A stretch of 27,299 nt of DNA, from positions 1-27,299 of the forward strand of contig CAZYCQ010000022.1 of assembly GCA_964645535.1 (NCBI GenBank), in the 5' to 3' direction. This document shows, piece after piece, positions 4,037 to 11,289 of the stretch. The stretch comes from an uncultured archaeon. Its GTDB lineage: Archaea; Asgardarchaeota; Heimdallarchaeia; Heimdallarchaeales; Kariarchaeaceae. Under the pieces are notes generated by a model, which had not been told where the DNA came from, made no database searches, and was given only the letters and a program-made list of their open reading frames with translations. Positions within the stretch are counted from its first letter, which is position 1, and every line of letters starts with the position of its first letter. Made by a program: the position numbers and the translations under genes.

Positions 4037-5221
4037 TTGGTAGCCCCTGACCTTCTTTCGCTTTGGATTTCCGGCACCTTGCTTGCAGCGACTGTAGGGG
4101 TATCCATCTATGTTTTCCGAAAGGTGCAGGGTTCGTCAATTCTGCAAACTGTTGGAGGCTACATGCTGGCTTCTGCTTGGATGTTCCTGTCACTGCTGAA
4201 TGATCATGTTTCCATTTGGCTGATCAATTCTGACCCTCAGGGCACTGCATTTTTGACCATTCTCTTAATTCTTGCAGCTCTCATGGTCACCAATTCGCTC
4301 CATCGCGGGTTTCGGTTTGCCTCACACTTACGGCATTTTATTCTTTTCATGGGGTGGTTTCTGATTGGAATATTTTTTGTCCAGGTTGTGGTACCTGAAA
4401 GCATCATTATCCTAAGTCAGCAGGGTGAATCTTCTCCCAGTATCCATCCGATTGTTCTCATTCTCCTTATAGGATGGGCTTTCATCATCCTAGTATATCT
4501 TTTTACCTTTGACCTGAGAACAGTTAAGGGATTGGATAGGTATTTCCCTACTTACGTATTACAGGTTCCTCGTTTTATCGGTTTCGGAGGCATGGTTCTT
4601 TTTGTGATTCAACCGCTCGTGATACGGTTGGATCCGGACTTAGGTCGGAATTACCTTCTTTTGGTTGCGGATCGCTTATTGGTTCAGTTTGCCATCCTCT
4701 TTTTCATGGTGATTCTGCTGGATGATCCGACAGTTGCTCTTGAGATCGGTCGAAGGTTAAGGAAGTTATACGATGCGGGGGAGATTGGACTGGCTTTTTT
4801 CGGATTTGACGAAACCGGTCCCACATTATGGTTTTCCAAAGGAGATTTTGCTGCTGATCCTGATGGTATCTCCCGTCTTTTGTCCATTGGGCTGTCCGCA
4901 ATGGTTGCTTTGGGGCAGGATGATGAATATGTTGTTGGCTCGGTTCTGATCCCCATTGCCGGCAATCGGCATACTGCTTTGGGTCTCGGCAATTGGATGA
5001 AAGATGCCAGTCAGGCTGATCCAAGGATGAAGGGACGTACATTTGTGGTTGGTGTCGTCATTCTCCCCAATACCATTGCCTGGATATTTGACCATCGAGA
5101 ACATTTGGAAGCTTCCTTTACTCGTTTTCTGCAACACTATGAAGACCGTTCACAACTGTCTCCCGAAGCTTTTTATGAGTTTATGCGATCTGAATTGTTG
5201 GAGATTGGCATCTCTTCATGA
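4037..5221 (+). CDS. Seven-TM membrane protein with C-terminal cytoplasmic longin/uDENN-like domain
   Basis: Seven hydrophobic segments in the first ~230 aa, then GLAFFGFDETGP..ALGQ..DPRMKGRTFVVGVVI. TTG start is uncertain. Confidence 0.65.
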   Translation: MVAPDLLSLWISGTLLAATVGVSIYVFRKVQGSSILQTVGGYMLASAWMFLSLLNDHVSIWLINSDPQGTAFLTILLILAALMVTNSLHRGFRFASHLRHFILFMGWFLIGIFFVQVVVPESIIILSQQGESSPSIHPIVLILLIGWAFIILVYLFTFDLRTVKGLDRYFPTYVLQVPRFIGFGGMVLFVIQPLVIRLDPDLGRNYLLLVADRLLVQFAILFFMVILLDDPTVALEIGRRLRKLYDAGEIGLAFFGFDETGPTLWFSKGDFAADPDGISRLLSIGLSAMVALGQDDEYVVGSVLIPIAGNRHTALGLGNWMKDASQADPRMKGRTFVVGVVILPNTIAWIFDHREHLEASFTRFLQHYEDRSQLSPEAFYEFMRSELLEIGISS

Positions 5222-5257: not shown

Positions 5258-5836
5258 ATGGGTTTCTCTCCTCTTGGCAGTGCCTTCATTTTGAGCCTTG
5301 GTTTCCTTGGGGTTTCCATTTACCAGTTTCTTGAGGGGAACCTCACGGCTGGTAGATTTTGGCTTATGGTGACTACACTTGCCTTTTTCTTCACGTTTTT
5401 TTTCTTCCGTGCCTTGTACTATCTTCGTTATCGTGCCACCTTCAATGATGTCGGTTTTGTCTTCTTTCTTCCGCATGTTCCCCTTTTCTTTGCCTTTCTT
5501 TCGCGGCTTTTCCGGATCGAGGTGGATGATCTTGTGATTCTAGAACTCTTGAAACCTTGGGAGCTCCGGCTTTTTGCCAATTTTGTTGATCTTGTCAGTC
5601 TCCCCTTTTATCTTTTCAGCCTTTTTCTGCTCTTGAGAACTCATCTTCGCTATCCGTTCATCCGTCTGACGGGTCATGCAACTGATGGGCTTCCTTCGCG
5701 ATTGGTTGCCCTTTACATGACTGTCGAGGTTCCCTTTGTCTATTGGATTGTTGCTCTTCTTTTTGTCCCGAATCTTTCCCTTCTTCTTTTCGGGCTTTCT
5801 TTTCTTGTCATTGGATTCATAGGTTTCTTTGTTTGA
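5258..5836 (+). CDS. Multi-pass membrane protein, apparent paralog of the membrane domain of the RING protein at 6928-8016
   Basis: About six hydrophobic segments; colinear motif similarity to the E3 N-terminus (see findings). Confidence 0.75.
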   Translation: MGFSPLGSAFILSLGFLGVSIYQFLEGNLTAGRFWLMVTTLAFFFTFFFFRALYYLRYRATFNDVGFVFFLPHVPLFFAFLSRLFRIEVDDLVILELLKPWELRLFANFVDLVSLPFYLFSLFLLLRTHLRYPFIRLTGHATDGLPSRLVALYMTVEVPFVYWIVALLFVPNLSLLLFGLSFLVIGFIGFFV

Positions 5837-5841
5837 TTTTG

Positions 5842-6492
5842 CTACCTTGGTAGCTTTTCCTTCGGAATTTTTGTTTTTGGATCCTTGGGTCGTTTTTCGG
5901 AAGGGATTTTTGCACTTGATGGAAGATTTTTGGTACTTGGAGGTCTTTCATCTTTTACCACCCTGCTGATTTCTTTTGAGTGAATTCTGTTGGTTTTCAA
6001 GGTCTTGATAGGTTTGGGTTTTTCCTTTTTCTTTGGTTTCTTGGCAGGTACTGTCTTGACCTTGGTTTTTCCAATTGTCTTTGTCCGTGTGGGGACGGGG
6101 TTCTCTTTTTTTTGATTTTTTTCAATGCTTTTGACTGCAATGTTCTTCAGGGCTTTTTCTTTGACCTTTTTCGGTTTCTTGTCAATGTTTTTTTGTTTGA
6201 TGGATTTGGAACTGGTGGGGCGTTTTTCCTTTATTTTCATCTTGCTTGGGGAAGGGGGCTGTTTTTCCCTGATTGGGTTATTTGGTTTCCTTTCCACTGA
6301 GGTCTTGGGAATTGTCTTAAGCAATTTCTCGATCTTTACCTTTTTTTTCGGAGGAACGCTGGCTAGTCTCTGCCTAACTGTTTTTTTTGGAGGTTGATCT
6401 TTCTTTACTTCCGTTTTTGGAATGGTGTCCTTTGGAATCTTCTCTTTTGGTGTTTTCTGTTTGATTCGGTCTTTTTTGAAGGGAAGTTTCAT
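5842..6492 (-). CDS. Lys/Pro-rich, highly basic, predicted disordered protein (histone H1 tail-like composition)
   Basis: About 63 Lys in 216 aa by hand count; no Cys, Trp or Tyr. ATGA overlap with the upstream stop and a GGAGG ribosome-binding site support a real gene. Confidence 0.7.
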   Translation of the reverse strand: MKLPFKKDRIKQKTPKEKIPKDTIPKTEVKKDQPPKKTVRQRLASVPPKKKVKIEKLLKTIPKTSVERKPNNPIREKQPPSPSKMKIKEKRPTSSKSIKQKNIDKKPKKVKEKALKNIAVKSIEKNQKKENPVPTRTKTIGKTKVKTVPAKKPKKKEKPKPIKTLKTNRIHSKEISRVVKDERPPSTKNLPSSAKIPSEKRPKDPKTKIPKEKLPR

Positions 6493-6914
6493 TTCTTTCC
6501 TCCTTTCCTTAATTTTCGGTATTGTGAGATGAGATCCAACAGGATATCGGATATGGAAATGGAATTGGGTCCTCTGGAAGCGATTCCCTTTTCAAGCATG
6601 TATTTGGTCTTGATCTCATTCAATTTTCGGTGCACATCTGCTGAGACCACAATGGTCTTATCTGACCTAGGGCTTCTGGCATCACCTGCATCCTCTGGAA
6701 GTTTTTCCTTGATTGTTTCCTGCAAGTTGACTGATTTTCTCTCAAAGGCATCAAATACCCTTTTCAGAACATCTGTATAGGTAGGCACCCCTTCCTCGAA
6801 CTTGAGGTGGCGAATGGCCTGCCACGCCTCGAAAGAGAGCCTCAGGTTTTTGCCTCGGCTACTCACGGATTTTTCTGTGTTTGTGTGGTTATTAGGGTTT
6901 GTCTTCAAAGTCAT
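6489..6914 (-). CDS. Tandem RHH DNA-binding protein (archaeal VapB/CopG-like units)
   Basis: Two RHH-like units: KNLRLSFEAWQAIRHLK..TYTDVLKRVF and KTIVVSADVHRKLNEIK..SISDILLDLI. ATG 6914, preceded by GGTGG, is preferred over 6971. Confidence 0.7.
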   Translation of the reverse strand: MTLKTNPNNHTNTEKSVSSRGKNLRLSFEAWQAIRHLKFEEGVPTYTDVLKRVFDAFERKSVNLQETIKEKLPEDAGDARSPRSDKTIVVSADVHRKLNEIKTKYMLEKGIASRGPNSISISDILLDLISQYRKLRKGGKK

Positions 6915-6927
6915 TAACCCACCCAAC

Positions 6928-8016
6928 TTACTTGAGCTTTTTGAGCACTTGGCGGGAATACTGCGAGGCATCCAACTTCAATTTTGTGGATAACCGGCTG
7001 ACCGGTTTGGAGCAACGGGGGCACAGGTTGGATTCCCTTCTCCACTCCTTCAGTTCCTGTTCATGGGCAGGGAACTTACAATGTGGACAGAGTACGATTT
7101 TGCCATCGGAGGGGCGAATCGGTTCATAGCAGATGGTGCAGGCCAAATCTTCTTTTCTCACATGGCCTGTCGGCATGAGATTCGTGCCTGTCTTCTTTCC
7201 ATTTCCATTCGTTCGACGTTGGGGGCGGACTTGAATTTCTCTTCCTGGTTCAATTGTCGCAATGTCTGTTCTTCTGGGTCTAGAGGGTATTCCATTGCTT
7301 CTTCGTGATCTTCTTGGGGATCTACGGAGATAGTCATTAAGGAATGCATTGGAATGGGCTGCACGGAATGTCTCCTCTTGCCGTCGGCGTGATTGTCTGC
7401 GAAGGATGTGTCTTCCAAGTACATAGTATTTGACCGTAGAATAAAGCCAGAAGGCAACCGCCATCAGTGCCAATGGATCAATGATGTGTGTTTTCCATCC
7501 TATGTAAAGGAAGGACATGGCCATTGCGGAATGAACCAGAAATGGCACCAGCCGTGTCCTGAACAGTTTCCGATGCACTGCGAATCCCAGCCATTCTTTT
7601 CTATGGATTTTCCAGAAGATGTAGGACTGAAACAGCAAATGAGGTAGTCCCAACAAAATTGTATGGAAGAAAATCAGCCTGTAGCCGTTTATCAGAATTA
7701 CACTTCTCTCCACAAGGATAGGTTCCATTGTTTCCCCAACAAGGAAACCCAAAAGAATCACCACATATGGCAACCCGACGAACTGGGAGCTTGCAAGGAT
7801 TGAATCATACCTTTGGAAATATCTCCGTTCCCAGAGAATCCTTGAAGAGACCATAGTCCATACGGTAAGGTAGGCAATTAGGATTGTTCTTGACATGTTC
7901 CCTGCCAGCAGGTAGAGGAATGCAATGACCGAACCGATCAGCCAGATGGCCACATACATCTCTATTGTATTGAATAGCCGTTCGATTCTATCAAGCAACC
8001 CCTCAAACATTGTCAT
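6928..8016 (-). CDS. Membrane-embedded RING-type E3 ligase (multi-TM N-terminus, Arg-rich linker, C-terminal RING)
   Basis: About six TM segments; C-terminal CTIC..CPHCKFPAHEQELKEW..LCPRC at ~7013-7140; located in the E1/E2/JAMM operon; ATGA overlap with the JAMM stop. Confidence 0.85.
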   Translation of the reverse strand: MTMFEGLLDRIERLFNTIEMYVAIWLIGSVIAFLYLLAGNMSRTILIAYLTVWTMVSSRILWERRYFQRYDSILASSQFVGLPYVVILLGFLVGETMEPILVERSVILINGYRLIFFHTILLGLPHLLFQSYIFWKIHRKEWLGFAVHRKLFRTRLVPFLVHSAMAMSFLYIGWKTHIIDPLALMAVAFWLYSTVKYYVLGRHILRRQSRRRQEETFRAAHSNAFLNDYLRRSPRRSRRSNGIPSRPRRTDIATIEPGREIQVRPQRRTNGNGKKTGTNLMPTGHVRKEDLACTICYEPIRPSDGKIVLCPHCKFPAHEQELKEWRRESNLCPRCSKPVSRLSTKLKLDASQYSRQVLKKLK

Positions 8017-8699
8017 TCCTCCATCTGATTCATTAACAGCGATATGGCCGCAAAAGCTGCTTCAGGAGTCATGCCTTCTACCTCGGATTCGAGTCGATAA
8101 TACTCATGCCGTCCTGACAGCCTGAACACTTCAAATCCATAGGATTCCTTGGTGATCATTGTGGGGTCGATGACAATCGCGATCGAGCTTTCCCAAAGGG
8201 CTTGGTATCGTGCTTGGGTTCTGACATCATCGATGCTCAGATAGGGGGAATAGGATGGATGGGAATGAGCCCAGCCTACGATAAATTCGTTTTCTTGCTT
8301 TTTGCGGAGAATATCCATTACAGGTTCTGCCTCCAGAATATTCACGCTTACTGCATTGCCATGTCCTACTGGCCAATATTGACTAACAATGATCCGTTCA
8401 ATGGGAGTGTTCTCATCAACAAGGGTGCCTGTCAGCAATCCTATGACTTCCACCCATTGGGAGGGATGCCGTTTGGGATTGGCAAACTTGATGGCATGAG
8501 CGGCCATATTCAGATAGGCTTCGGACTTCATGACAACTTGGGACTGACGGGGGATGGACAAATCATCCCTTTCATTGATGTCCGCCTTATCAGTGTTGTG
8601 CTCTCCGGTGGCCGTCGGTTCGAGTGCCATGAGGCTTTCGATGCGTTCGATCCTATCCAGGATTTCCCGATATTCCGGAGGCATTTTTTCCGAGTTCAT
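8013..8699 (-). CDS. JAMM/MPN+ metallo-isopeptidase (Rpn11/CSN5-like deubiquitinase or Ubl maturase)
   Basis: EVIGLL..VGWAHSHPSYSPYLSIDD (E..HxH-x7-S-x2-D intact), then TQARYQ and IAIVIDP. Confidence 0.93.
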   Translation of the reverse strand: MNSEKMPPEYREILDRIERIESLMALEPTATGEHNTDKADINERDDLSIPRQSQVVMKSEAYLNMAAHAIKFANPKRHPSQWVEVIGLLTGTLVDENTPIERIIVSQYWPVGHGNAVSVNILEAEPVMDILRKKQENEFIVGWAHSHPSYSPYLSIDDVRTQARYQALWESSIAIVIDPTMITKESYGFEVFRLSGRHEYYRLESEVEGMTPEAAFAAISLLMNQMEE

Positions 8700-8702
8700 A
8701 AG

Positions 8703-9224
8703 TCACCAATATTCCTTTGCGTATTTTTTGTTGATTGCCTTGGCCTTCTTCATGAACTTCTTCCGATCATTGAGATATTGCAAGGCAGCTTCCTTATTGA
8801 AGACATCCTTGGGGTTGATGAAAGCCCCATCGATATTGAACATTGCCAAAATTGAATGGATGACCGTTCCGATGTTTTTCGAAGGGCTCCAGCCGTTGGG
8901 CTTGCCTACCAGTTCCTGATCAACCAAGGCCAGACAAATGTTTCTTTTTCCTTGGTATTCCTTGGGGTTGGGCCAAAAGTTGGGATGCCAGATGGGGGTG
9001 TGCAACCTGACAAATGGTGGCTTATATGGGTAATTCGGTCCATATTTGATTTCAAGTTTGTACTTGCCGCCTTCATAGGGTGTCCCTTTTGGTCCCTTGA
9101 ACCCAATGGCCAAATGTTCTATCGATTTCTTTGTTGGAGAGAACGATTTGACCTGATCGATCACTCCTTTTTTGTACAGGTGCTTCAGAATTTCATAATC
9201 TTTGATGATTCTTTTCTTTCTCAT
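8703..9224 (-). CDS. Ubiquitin-conjugating enzyme E2 (UBC fold)
   Basis: GPKGTPYEGG, YPYKPPFVR, WHPN, catalytic ICL, WSP, NKEAA. Confidence 0.95.
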   Translation of the reverse strand: MRKKRIIKDYEILKHLYKKGVIDQVKSFSPTKKSIEHLAIGFKGPKGTPYEGGKYKLEIKYGPNYPYKPPFVRLHTPIWHPNFWPNPKEYQGKRNICLALVDQELVGKPNGWSPSKNIGTVIHSILAMFNIDGAFINPKDVFNKEAALQYLNDRKKFMKKAKAINKKYAKEYW

Positions 9225-10507
9225 GGTTTTCGTCCCTCATTGTACTTGATTTTGACATAGATGTCGATATCCTCCTCATTTCGGATGAAGCCAAGGGCGT
9301 AAAGGGTTTCCCCTTGTCTGATGTTTTCCTCATGAAGTGTCCGGTCAAGGGCAAGGGGTTCCATGTCTTCGCCATCCATCCTGTAATAACTTGGATCCAG
9401 GTCTGGATTCCTTAGGTACCCCTCTTTCCGAAGCAGAAGCTCGAGATTTTCTATGACGAGGGATCTTGGAACCTTTATTGAGAGGATTTTGGGTGCCTGC
9501 GGTCCGCAGAGCTGACAATCTGGGTTGGGTGGTTTCTTCAGGTAGAAGAACTTTCCTGTCACGCCATTGTATATGGTATATTCTAAATTGACTTGACCAA
9601 TGTTTCTCCCATGCAATTGATGGAGTGCCTTTATCGCTTCCTGTGATTGGATGGACGCAATGACCGCATTTATGGTTATCACTGTTGGCTCATGGAAATC
9701 TATCATGGAAACTGCCTCATCCAATGTGAACTCCTTCTCGTGGGGGAAGTGTTCTCTCACCAGTCGGTTCGCATAGTTGAGCACCTTTTCCATCTCTTCT
9801 CTGTTTGAGGTGTCCGGTTCTCTTCCAGTCTGGGATTCAAAGAAGAGTTGTCCTTTCAAAAGGCAATGGGATCGTTTTCTGGGAACTCCTACAAGAGTGC
9901 ATGCCGCAAGCGTTTCCCTTTCCCGTTCCTTCAGTGGATCACATTGCAGGCAGGCATTGGCTTTGGGCATGTAGGTGTAGATATGTCCATAGTATGTCAT
10001 GGTGCCTCCATCAATCAGCGGCTTGCCATTGTGCACTGCTTGCCGTGCAAGGTCCCTTCTGGCCTCTACATTGTCCAATCCTGATATGTAGAGATCCACT
10101 TCTTCGAAGATCATTGGATCAAGGGATTGAAGTTTCCCGTGGTGAGGGATGTAACTTCCATAGGGATTCACTTCCTTCAATTTCCTCGCTGCCGCGACCG
10201 CTTTGGATTCCCCTTCCTCTGCACCGATAAAAAGAATCTGGCGGTTGAGGTTACTGTATTCAATCACATCCATGTCCACAAGATGGAGGGTTCCCACTCC
10301 TGCCATGGCAAGATTCTTGGCAATTTCTGTACCAAGCCCTCCAATTCCTGCGATGAGTACTGATGATCGCTTTAGGGTTTCTTGATCCCATCCAGGAAGG
10401 CGAAACTGACGATCCAAACGTTTGCGTTCGTCAGGTGTGAGACTGTCGGAAAAGAAATTTGATCTGTTTTTGTCCATATTATTCACGTCCAGGGTGTCGG
10501 TCTTCAC
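9221..10507 (-). CDS. Ubiquitin-like activating enzyme E1 (ThiF/MoeB fold, Uba3-like catalytic Cys domain, probable C-terminal ubiquitin-fold domain)
   Basis: RLDRQ, GIGGLG, DMDVIEYSNLNRQILF, LDN, DGGT, Zn pairs CLQC and CQLC, and CTLVGVPRKRSHC resembling Uba3 CTIAxxPRxPEHC. The GTG start overlaps the upstream TGA. Confidence 0.93.
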   Translation of the reverse strand: MKTDTLDVNNMDKNRSNFFSDSLTPDERKRLDRQFRLPGWDQETLKRSSVLIAGIGGLGTEIAKNLAMAGVGTLHLVDMDVIEYSNLNRQILFIGAEEGESKAVAAARKLKEVNPYGSYIPHHGKLQSLDPMIFEEVDLYISGLDNVEARRDLARQAVHNGKPLIDGGTMTYYGHIYTYMPKANACLQCDPLKERERETLAACTLVGVPRKRSHCLLKGQLFFESQTGREPDTSNREEMEKVLNYANRLVREHFPHEKEFTLDEAVSMIDFHEPTVITINAVIASIQSQEAIKALHQLHGRNIGQVNLEYTIYNGVTGKFFYLKKPPNPDCQLCGPQAPKILSIKVPRSLVIENLELLLRKEGYLRNPDLDPSYYRMDGEDMEPLALDRTLHEENIRQGETLYALGFIRNEEDIDIYVKIKYNEGRKP

Positions 10508-10824
10508 CAGACCCCTGCCGTGGAGAAAGGTATGATGAGCATGGTGTCGCCATCCTCAACATCATAATTGTCGACGATGTCATCATCATCACAGGTTCTT
10601 CCTCCAATCACGATATGGAATGACTGGGTGTCTGGGAGTCCGAACAGGGTGGCAAGGGTCTGCTTGATGTCACGGATGGAGGCATCGCGGGCAATCTCCA
10701 GCGTCTCCTGCCGATGGCTTGGGCCGACTGTACTTTCGACTTGGATCCGTACCTTCCCTGAAGGGGGTAACTCTTCATCCAAGCCATCAATGTCCAGTTC
10801 TTCAAATTCTCTGTCTTCGCTCAT
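10504..10824 (-). CDS. Ubiquitin-like protein 2 (acidic N-terminal extension, ends STAG-VW)
   Basis: Beta-grasp pattern SIRDIKQTLATLFGLP..FHIVIGGRTCDDDDIVDNYDVEDGDTMLII. ATG 10824 chosen by similarity to the Ubl1 N-terminus; the alternative is 10875. Confidence 0.88.
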   Translation of the reverse strand: MSEDREFEELDIDGLDEELPPSGKVRIQVESTVGPSHRQETLEIARDASIRDIKQTLATLFGLPDTQSFHIVIGGRTCDDDDIVDNYDVEDGDTMLIIPFSTAGVW

Positions 10825-10871
10825 AACTAACCTTGCCCAATACAAGGTAATGAACGTTTCCCACAGAGGAT

Positions 10872-11216
10872 TCATTTGCCTGCCGTTGAGACAGGTATCA
10901 GGAGAAGGGAGTCTCCATCCTCAACCCCGTAATTGTCGAGGGAATCATCCGGATCACAAGTGCGACCTGCATGGGAGATATGGAATTCATCTGGAGGCAA
11001 TCCAAAAATCTGTCCCACCGTATACTTGAGATCCCTGATGGGGGCGTCTTTGGCCACAACCAGCTTCTCCTGCTTCTGGTTTGGACCAACCGTGCTCTGG
11101 AAATACACCGTCACCTTTTTTCCCGCAGGGGTCTTGGAGGTGGCGGGTGTCTTCGACTTTATTTCATTGACCAAAAGGTCATCATCTTCAAATGACAAGT
11201 CTTCAAACTCGCTCAT
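10872..11216 (-). CDS. Ubiquitin-like protein 1 (acidic N-terminal extension, ends STAG-K)
   Basis: PIRDLKYTVGQIFGLPPDEFHISHAGRTCDPDDSLDNYGVEDGDSLLLI matches the ubiquitin/SUMO 'TLxDYxIxDGxTIHL' pattern. ATG 11216 is preceded by AGGTGAT. Confidence 0.9.
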   Translation of the reverse strand: MSEFEDLSFEDDDLLVNEIKSKTPATSKTPAGKKVTVYFQSTVGPNQKQEKLVVAKDAPIRDLKYTVGQIFGLPPDEFHISHAGRTCDPDDSLDNYGVEDGDSLLLIPVSTAGK

Positions 11217-11289
11217 AGTAATCACCTGGGTTGTGGACCATGCAAACACATGATCACAACAACACACAAACATATATTACATTCCAAAC

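Follow-up and report, generated by a model that had tools for sequence, protein, structure and literature searches.

The stretch of DNA analysed here (the window) comprises 27,299 nucleotides (nt) of an uncultured archaeon of the Kariarchaeaceae within the Heimdallarchaeia (assembly GCA_964645535.1, contig CAZYCQ010000022.1), and contains an operon for the conjugation of a ubiquitin-like protein (Ubl), next to which a small membrane protein is encoded that we call A. A (5258 to 5836, plus strand) is 192 amino acids long, has six transmembrane (TM) helices, and is distantly paralogous to the membrane domain carried by the candidate E3 ligase of this operon. The E3 candidate (TM-RING; 6928 to 8016, minus strand) is a 362 amino acid protein with a six-helix membrane domain homologous to A (residues 18 to 208; 7393 to 7965), a basic low-complexity linker and a C-terminal RING-like finger (residues 293 to 335; 7012 to 7140). 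A sequence-only reading of the window had proposed from four short aligned blocks that one uncharacterised TM domain occurs here once with and once without a RING finger, encoded by convergent genes; its coordinates and gene orientation are accurate, and profile homology supports the shared domain. The A/E3 pair is a real and conserved feature, and apparently an undescribed one.

The homology was established by gathering homologs from 400 Asgard genomes, keeping the A and E3 families apart, and then comparing their profiles. With profiles of 50x50 sequences, HHalign aligned A and the E3 domain over 159 columns with a probability of 95.6-96.0% (E 1e-8 to 3.9e-9). The real pair scored 59, compared to 11 for a reversed profile, at most 22.5 for column shuffles, at most 21 for five unrelated TM families of the same loci, and at most 29.1 for local shuffles preserving the hydropathy pattern, the type of control by which the sequence-only reading had proposed to judge the resemblance. 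Matches across the two families were also obtained with hidden Markov models (HMMs) in the genomes G046, G049, G052 and G013, and the E3 profile detected 18 of 49 A proteins at E<1e-3, with the best unrelated open reading frame (ORF) of the window's genome at E 0.011. We conclude that A and the E3 membrane domain are paralogous because the profile score is twice that of the best control, the families are linked by cross-family HMM matches, and conserved columns and hairpin positions are shared, as described below. On their own, the two window proteins are barely more similar than chance (shuffle p 0.02-0.05); BLASTP gave E 0.11, on a segment other than the quoted blocks, and HHalign with shallow sets of 5x3 sequences gave 0.1%. 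The quoted blocks are all present and colinear, with offsets of +8 to +11, and the third does contain 8 identities in 26 positions. Blocks two and three are in register with the profile alignment, whereas the first is displaced by 4 residues (residue 51 of A pairs with residue 63 of E3) and the fourth by one, the latter in a region where the profile alignment has low confidence.

AlphaFold models of A and of the E3 domain (predicted local distance difference test, pLDDT, 94.4 and 93.7; predicted template modelling score, pTM, 0.87) display the same order of elements: three helices, a beta-hairpin, a helix, a short hairpin and two helices, with one additional N-terminal helix in E3. In A, the helices comprise residues 5-25, 29-57, 65-84, 109-130, 147-168 and 173-191, the outer beta-hairpin residues 91-108 and the short inner hairpin residues 134-146; a short re-entrant-looking element lies ahead of helix 3 in both models. 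Both families have basic loops 2 and 4 (K+R 2.4 and 4.9 in A, 4.1 and 6.4 in E3) and acidic loops 1 and 3. According to the positive-inside rule, the N- and C-termini and loops 2 and 4 of both proteins are probably cytoplasmic, which would place the RING finger on the cytoplasmic side. Foldseek retrieved no match in the PDB at E<=0.001 for either model, and a wide VIA-align search yielded generic helical bundles with best Z values of 7.9 and 8.0. Structure matches in the ESM Atlas were unnamed bacterial TM proteins, with a TM score by query of at most 0.43 over residues 64-192, and Atlas features for A stayed under 0.9. Scans of both membrane domains against Pfam, NCBIfam and PDB sequences gave nothing consistent; novelty of the six-helix fold does not follow from these blank fold and family searches. 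Complex prediction for the E3 membrane domain with A returned scores of 0.04 and 0.08 against a mark of 0.32, which we count neither for nor against binding.

A is a real gene, since its frame is intact in about 50 genomes and its identity to one relative follows the pattern of a coding sequence across codon positions (0.76/0.92/0.45). It was found in 54 genomes, all of them Heimdallarchaeia, and the E3 domain in 51 genomes of the same class; 50 of the 55 genomes with either have both. In 42 of these 50, A follows directly after E3 on the same strand, mostly within the Ubl-E1-E2-JAMM-RING operon, with stop-to-start gaps mostly of 4-88 nt where measured. The rest comprise two genomes with convergent genes (the window's genome and G052) and six with the genes on different contigs, at least one of them through an assembly break. 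The co-occurrence that the sequence-only reading had proposed as a test is thus strong, and the catalytic and non-catalytic chains are genomically coupled, in genomes that are related, so that these counts represent non-independent events. Heimdallarchaeota AB_125, B3_Heim and Ca. Hodarchaeum mangrovi are among the other carriers. The Hodarchaeales-type family normally has the arrangement Ubl-Ubl-E1-E2-JAMM-E3-A. In the AB_125 family, Ubl and E1 lie further downstream and E2-JAMM-E3-A is intact; the E3-A tandem persists even where Ubl and E1 have been relocated (family f3). Two genomes of the same order, each a single contig (G015, G016), lack both A and E3, and A without the system was seen only in four fragmented assemblies that are 68-88% complete. 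Two individual loci deviate from these patterns. In GCA_026997455.1 (L005:2815-3481), a frameshift accompanied by a short duplication breaks the A gene in two, which probably reflects faulty assembly, and the gene caller missed it; in a single-contig, 70%-complete genome (L085; G064:C1, about 770790), the E3 frame is broken after about 145 amino acids and A was not found.

In the window, A and E3 are separated by two minus-strand genes, one for a Lys/Pro-rich low-complexity protein of 216 amino acids (5842 to 6492), which lies 5 nt from the end of A, and one for a protein of 160 amino acids (6489 to 6971) belonging to cluster c7, which is tied to the operon throughout the class. The convergence of A and E3 is true for the window, but it is not the state of the family, in which the tandem prevails. 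One inversion of the three-gene block of A, the Lys-rich gene and c7 relative to E3 yields the order seen in the window, so the convergent layout is most probably derived, a local rearrangement in the window's lineage. The same block also lies away from E3 in G053.

The membrane domain extends beyond the Heimdallarchaeia. A merged profile detected it in 171 of 381 Asgard genomes, 116 of which are outside the class and belong mostly to one large family named Lokiarchaeota or Promethearchaeota. In the 19 Loki-type loci inspected, TM-RING is encoded directly after JAMM in the same operon and carries the same RING variant, with no A alongside, and the A profile found nothing in 135 genomes of this family. 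By HHalign, the Loki TM-RING domain matches the Heimdall E3 at 98% and A at 80%. The three second hits in non-Heimdall genomes were rejected as stand-alone copies, as they corresponded to a second TM-RING, to a gene split at contig ends, or to a short weak hit in a 947 amino acid frame; TM ORFs adjoining two Lokiarchaeia E3 genes were likewise rejected as A (HHalign under 4%). One Lokiarchaeia-type genome (L200, G155:C156) has a second full TM-RING paralog in a 382 amino acid frame with the same RING variant. The Loki-type loci L134-L147 contain, upstream of the Ubl-E1-E2-JAMM-E3 operon, an opposite-strand ORF of about 270 amino acids with two predicted TM segments. This ORF matches the Ubl profile with 48-62 bits and possibly encodes a membrane-anchored Ubl.

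In a tree of the domain, a well-supported branch sets off each of the three groups A, Heimdall E3 and Loki E3, and the A and E3 subtrees contain the same host groups, which indicates that the duplication is older than the split of these Heimdall families. The three-group tree is unrooted and leaves the duplication unordered relative to the Loki-Heimdall split, so that a gain in Heimdall and a loss in Loki give the same picture.

A and E3 conserve different cytoplasmic residues, and A is thus no decaying duplicate. Residues R/K51, A60, T61, N63, E/D64, R127, R131, Y132, R136 and G144 are conserved in the A family, and E63, A75, S76, F79, P83, P125 and R149 in the E3 domain. A is the more conserved protein in 82% of genome pairs (42% versus 37% identity); the correlation of 0.94 between A and E3 pairwise identities stems from their common host descent and is not counted as evidence for co-evolution. 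Common to A, Heimdall E3 and Loki E3 are the columns F67, P75 and P116 (A numbering). N63 is present in 49 of 49 A proteins and in 19 of 19 Lokiarchaeia E3 proteins, and in none of the Heimdall E3 proteins; F129 is found in 44/49, 18/19 and 4/50, respectively, and R127 and Y132 follow the same trend more weakly, being shared by A and Loki E3 and lost from Heimdall E3. A in turn has R/K51, E/D64, R131 and R136, while Heimdall E3 has invariant E63, which aligns with R/K51, and A75/S76. All divided residues appear to lie on the cytoplasmic side. Such a split is the pattern that would be expected of two copies sharing the tasks of one ancestor, but the charged residues may just as well pair inside each chain.

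The finger of E3 has a C4-H-E-C2 pattern in which seven Cys/His ligands are conserved and the sixth ligand position is occupied by Glu in 69 of 71 homologs of the Heimdall and Loki groups. The fourth residue after this Glu is an invariant Trp. The spacing is C-x2-C...C-x2-C-x4-H, and all Pfam RING matches to the finger are below the cut-off, including Prok-RING_1 (PF14446; E 0.005). From position 11273 to 5842, the minus strand encodes two Ubls, E1, E2, JAMM, TM-RING, the 160 amino acid protein and the Lys-rich protein. The Ubl genes (10872 to 11273 and 10504 to 10875) encode proteins that end in STAG plus one and STAG plus two residues, respectively. STAG is located at or near the C-terminus of all 57 Ubl homologs, such that Ala-Gly replaces the Gly-Gly of canonical ubiquitin, which is absent. 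Some homologs have short extensions past STAG, which could be trimmed by JAMM. The E1 gene (9221 to 10507) encodes a ThiF family protein with a C-terminal ubiquitin-fold region, E2 (8703 to 9224) has its HPN...C motif in 47/47 homologs, and the JAMM/JAB isopeptidase (8013 to 8699) an intact metal motif in 54/54. The clustering of Ubl, E1, E2, JAMM and RING genes, with the catalytic motifs of E2 and JAMM intact, is that of an archaeal Ubl-conjugation operon.

We propose that A, having arisen by domain duplication, serves a membrane Ubl ligase as a non-catalytic subunit, a partnership suggested by genomic context to which we give about even chances. The sequence-only reading had offered a subunit, a substrate receptor and a decoy as conjectural roles. 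The ancestor would have been a single TM-RING protein, as in Lokiarchaeia, which probably self-associated via its membrane domain. A tandem duplication of this domain would have produced the RING-less copy A, and A and E3 would then assemble into a hetero-oligomeric membrane ligase for the Ala-Gly-ending Ubl. In this complex, the RING chain would recruit the charged E2, while A would contribute a scaffold or a substrate-binding surface via an Arg/Asn/Tyr patch on its cytoplasmic loops. In the lineage of the window, A, the Lys-rich gene and c7 would have been inverted as a block relative to E3, giving the convergent layout. More tentatively, and at less than even chances, the Heimdallarchaeia, including Hodarchaeales, may possess a pseudo-symmetric membrane ligase of two subunits that acts with a second Ubl, of the Ala-Gly type. 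This ligase would have been built from an uncharacterised six-helix domain by a transition from homo- to hetero-oligomer, and would serve membrane-protein recognition or quality control similar to, and independent of, the eukaryotic Asi complex and endoplasmic reticulum-associated degradation (ERAD).

Several observations weigh against a partnership of A and E3. The 116 non-Heimdall genomes have the TM-RING domain and no detected stand-alone copy, which means that this type of ligase needs no A in general. In five genomes of the window's family (G000, G052, G045, G053 and G054), A and E3 are inverted or at separate loci, and co-transcription is therefore dispensable. The tandem position on which the partnership is based would likewise be left by any duplication. 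The opposite charges at positions 51 and 63 may form intramolecular salt bridges, as A has its own E64 and E3 has R149, and the ligase activity of a RING variant with Glu as sixth ligand is itself a prediction.

Of the other explanations, the one we consider possible, if somewhat doubtful, is that A acts in the same pathway without being a stable subunit, for example as a sensor, a receptor, a dedicated substrate with a ligase-set level, or a recruiter of JAMM, an AAA+ ATPase or the Lys-rich protein to the membrane. This would agree with the invariant cytoplasmic motif R127, R131, Y132, R136 and G144 of A, which the E3 domain does not share, and with the broken loci, at which A accompanies the Lys-rich and c7 genes and not E3. 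Nevertheless, a paralog of the ligase's domain has been kept beside the ligase in four host families, for which a subunit is the simpler reading, and the E2-JAMM-E3-A order of family f3 outlasted the relocation of Ubl and E1.

Loss of the RING from a copy of an oligomerising domain is a frequent way in which dominant-negative regulators arise, and A could accordingly be a decoy, joining E3 oligomers or binding substrates and so damping the ligase. The presence of the ligase without A in other Asgard classes would fit such a role, which we nonetheless regard as unlikely: the near one-to-one, single-copy co-occurrence and the tandem order suggest constitutive co-expression, and A is more strongly constrained than the E3 domain and carries its own motifs, beyond what a mimic needs. 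Still less probable is a function of the six-helix domain as a small channel, transporter or ligand sensor, with A acting alone and its link to Ubl merely historical. The invariant polar and charged residues near the cytoplasmic face and the re-entrant-looking element before helix 3 would be in line with this, whereas a RING finger is present on every long homolog inspected to its end, and, the four fragmented assemblies aside, genomes without the system yielded no A. That the resemblance of A and E3 is a compositional coincidence of hydrophobic proteins, as the marginal p value of the window pair might suggest, is effectively refuted by a profile score twice the best control, the cross-family HMM matches, the F, P and P columns common to all three groups and the hairpins at the same positions in both models.

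Related operons have been reconstituted from other archaea. The operon of Ca. Caldiarchaeum subterraneum encodes ubiquitin, E1, E2, a small RING finger protein and Rpn11 (PMC5654768), and the Helarchaeia cascade consists of E1, E2 and small RING proteins (bioRxiv 10.1101/2023.07.25.550441); both use Gly-Gly ubiquitin. The system described here has the same classes of genes clustered in an operon, with intact E2 and JAMM motifs, and differs by its Ala-Gly modifier, the fusion of RING to a six-helix membrane domain, the Glu as sixth ligand and the additional RING-less TM paralog. The A/E3 pair is not described in the keyword-matched main-text passages of these two papers or of PMC9192718 and PMC11188069, and literature keyword searches, covering mostly openly accessible main texts, returned no account of it.

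The closest functional analogy is provided by the Asi complex of the yeast inner nuclear membrane, in which Asi1 and Asi3 both have catalytic domains and Asi2 is a non-catalytic multipass adaptor that binds TM domains of substrates (PMC6941229, PMC8170509). Both systems combine membrane RING subunits with a non-catalytic multipass subunit. In contrast to Asi, the RING-less chain is here a paralog of the ligase's own membrane domain, and the likeness is functional, with homology not established; Asi subunits were not among the listed Pfam or structure matches, from whose libraries the solved Asi structures may be absent. The sequence-only reading had drawn a loose parallel to Hrd1. Hrd1, which acts with Hrd3, Der1 and Usa1 in ERAD, likewise has a multipass membrane domain followed by a cytoplasmic RING and non-catalytic membrane partners; its finger is of the RING-H2 type, and the partners come from other families. 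None of them is known to be a copy of Hrd1's own TM domain. The parallel holds as a functional analogy, whereas homology to Hrd1 or its partners is not established: neither Hrd1 nor Derlin is among the listed sequence or fold matches of the membrane domains, which leaves room for unlisted families, and the conserved neighbourhood contained no recognisable gene for a luminal receptor or Cdc48 adaptor.

The spacing of the finger is that of Prok-RING_1 in prokaryotic Ubl-E1-E2-JAB-RING operons, and Prok-RING_1 occurs in 24-33% of the members of Atlas feature neighbours from Chloroflexota (score 0.8), which is a lead only. Different from Prok-RING_1 proteins, the finger has Glu as sixth ligand, and the membrane domain and its stand-alone copy were seen only in Asgard genomes in the searches run. 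The TM-RING of Lokiarchaeia/Promethearchaeota, annotated as 'hypothetical protein', is the orthologous E3 with a homologous membrane domain; the stand-alone copy, not detected in those genomes, sets the Heimdall system apart from it.

The genes next to A and E3 are less well defined. The Lys/Pro-rich protein contains about 25% K and 12% P with short KIP-type repeats, and a family search gave no match. Proteins of similar composition (clusters c6 and c9) neighbour A in all three well-sampled host families, and the window protein matches c6 weakly (HMM E 8e-6, low complexity). The c7 gene is located downstream of E3 in the window; in the Hodarchaeales-type family it lies ahead of the Ubl genes in divergent orientation. 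It may encode a DNA-binding operon regulator. On the same strand as A and 36 nt upstream, the window encodes a 394 amino acid multi-TM protein with a soluble C-terminal domain (4037-5221), which has three paralogs elsewhere in the genome and adjoins A only in close relatives (L001, L005). A relationship of A to this seven-TM protein was rejected (shuffle p 0.9), and A is not among its genome paralogs. The window's genome also holds an additional E1-like gene, next to which lies a small Ubl-like ORF, and further JAMM and E2-like genes elsewhere (G000:C20:8947-10204, C6 and C28), which probably belong to a separate modifier system. A scan for promoters and terminators found no promoter excess, by a method that is uninformative for archaea, and a search of RNA runs listed no holder.

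A hallmark of organelle quality control in eukaryotes is the use of membrane E3 ligases that have non-catalytic partner subunits. Here, in the class of archaea nearest to eukaryotes, a complete operon combines a multipass RING protein with a dedicated RING-less twin. As a eukaryotic homolog of the six-helix domain was not identified, this arrangement may be a parallel invention rather than an ancestor. The one-gene version of Lokiarchaeia and the two-gene version of Heimdallarchaeia allow a natural before-and-after comparison of how homomers may turn into heteromers, and the compact system of six to seven genes can be reconstituted, which allows one to ask whether multi-subunit Ubl tagging of membrane proteins predates eukaryotes.

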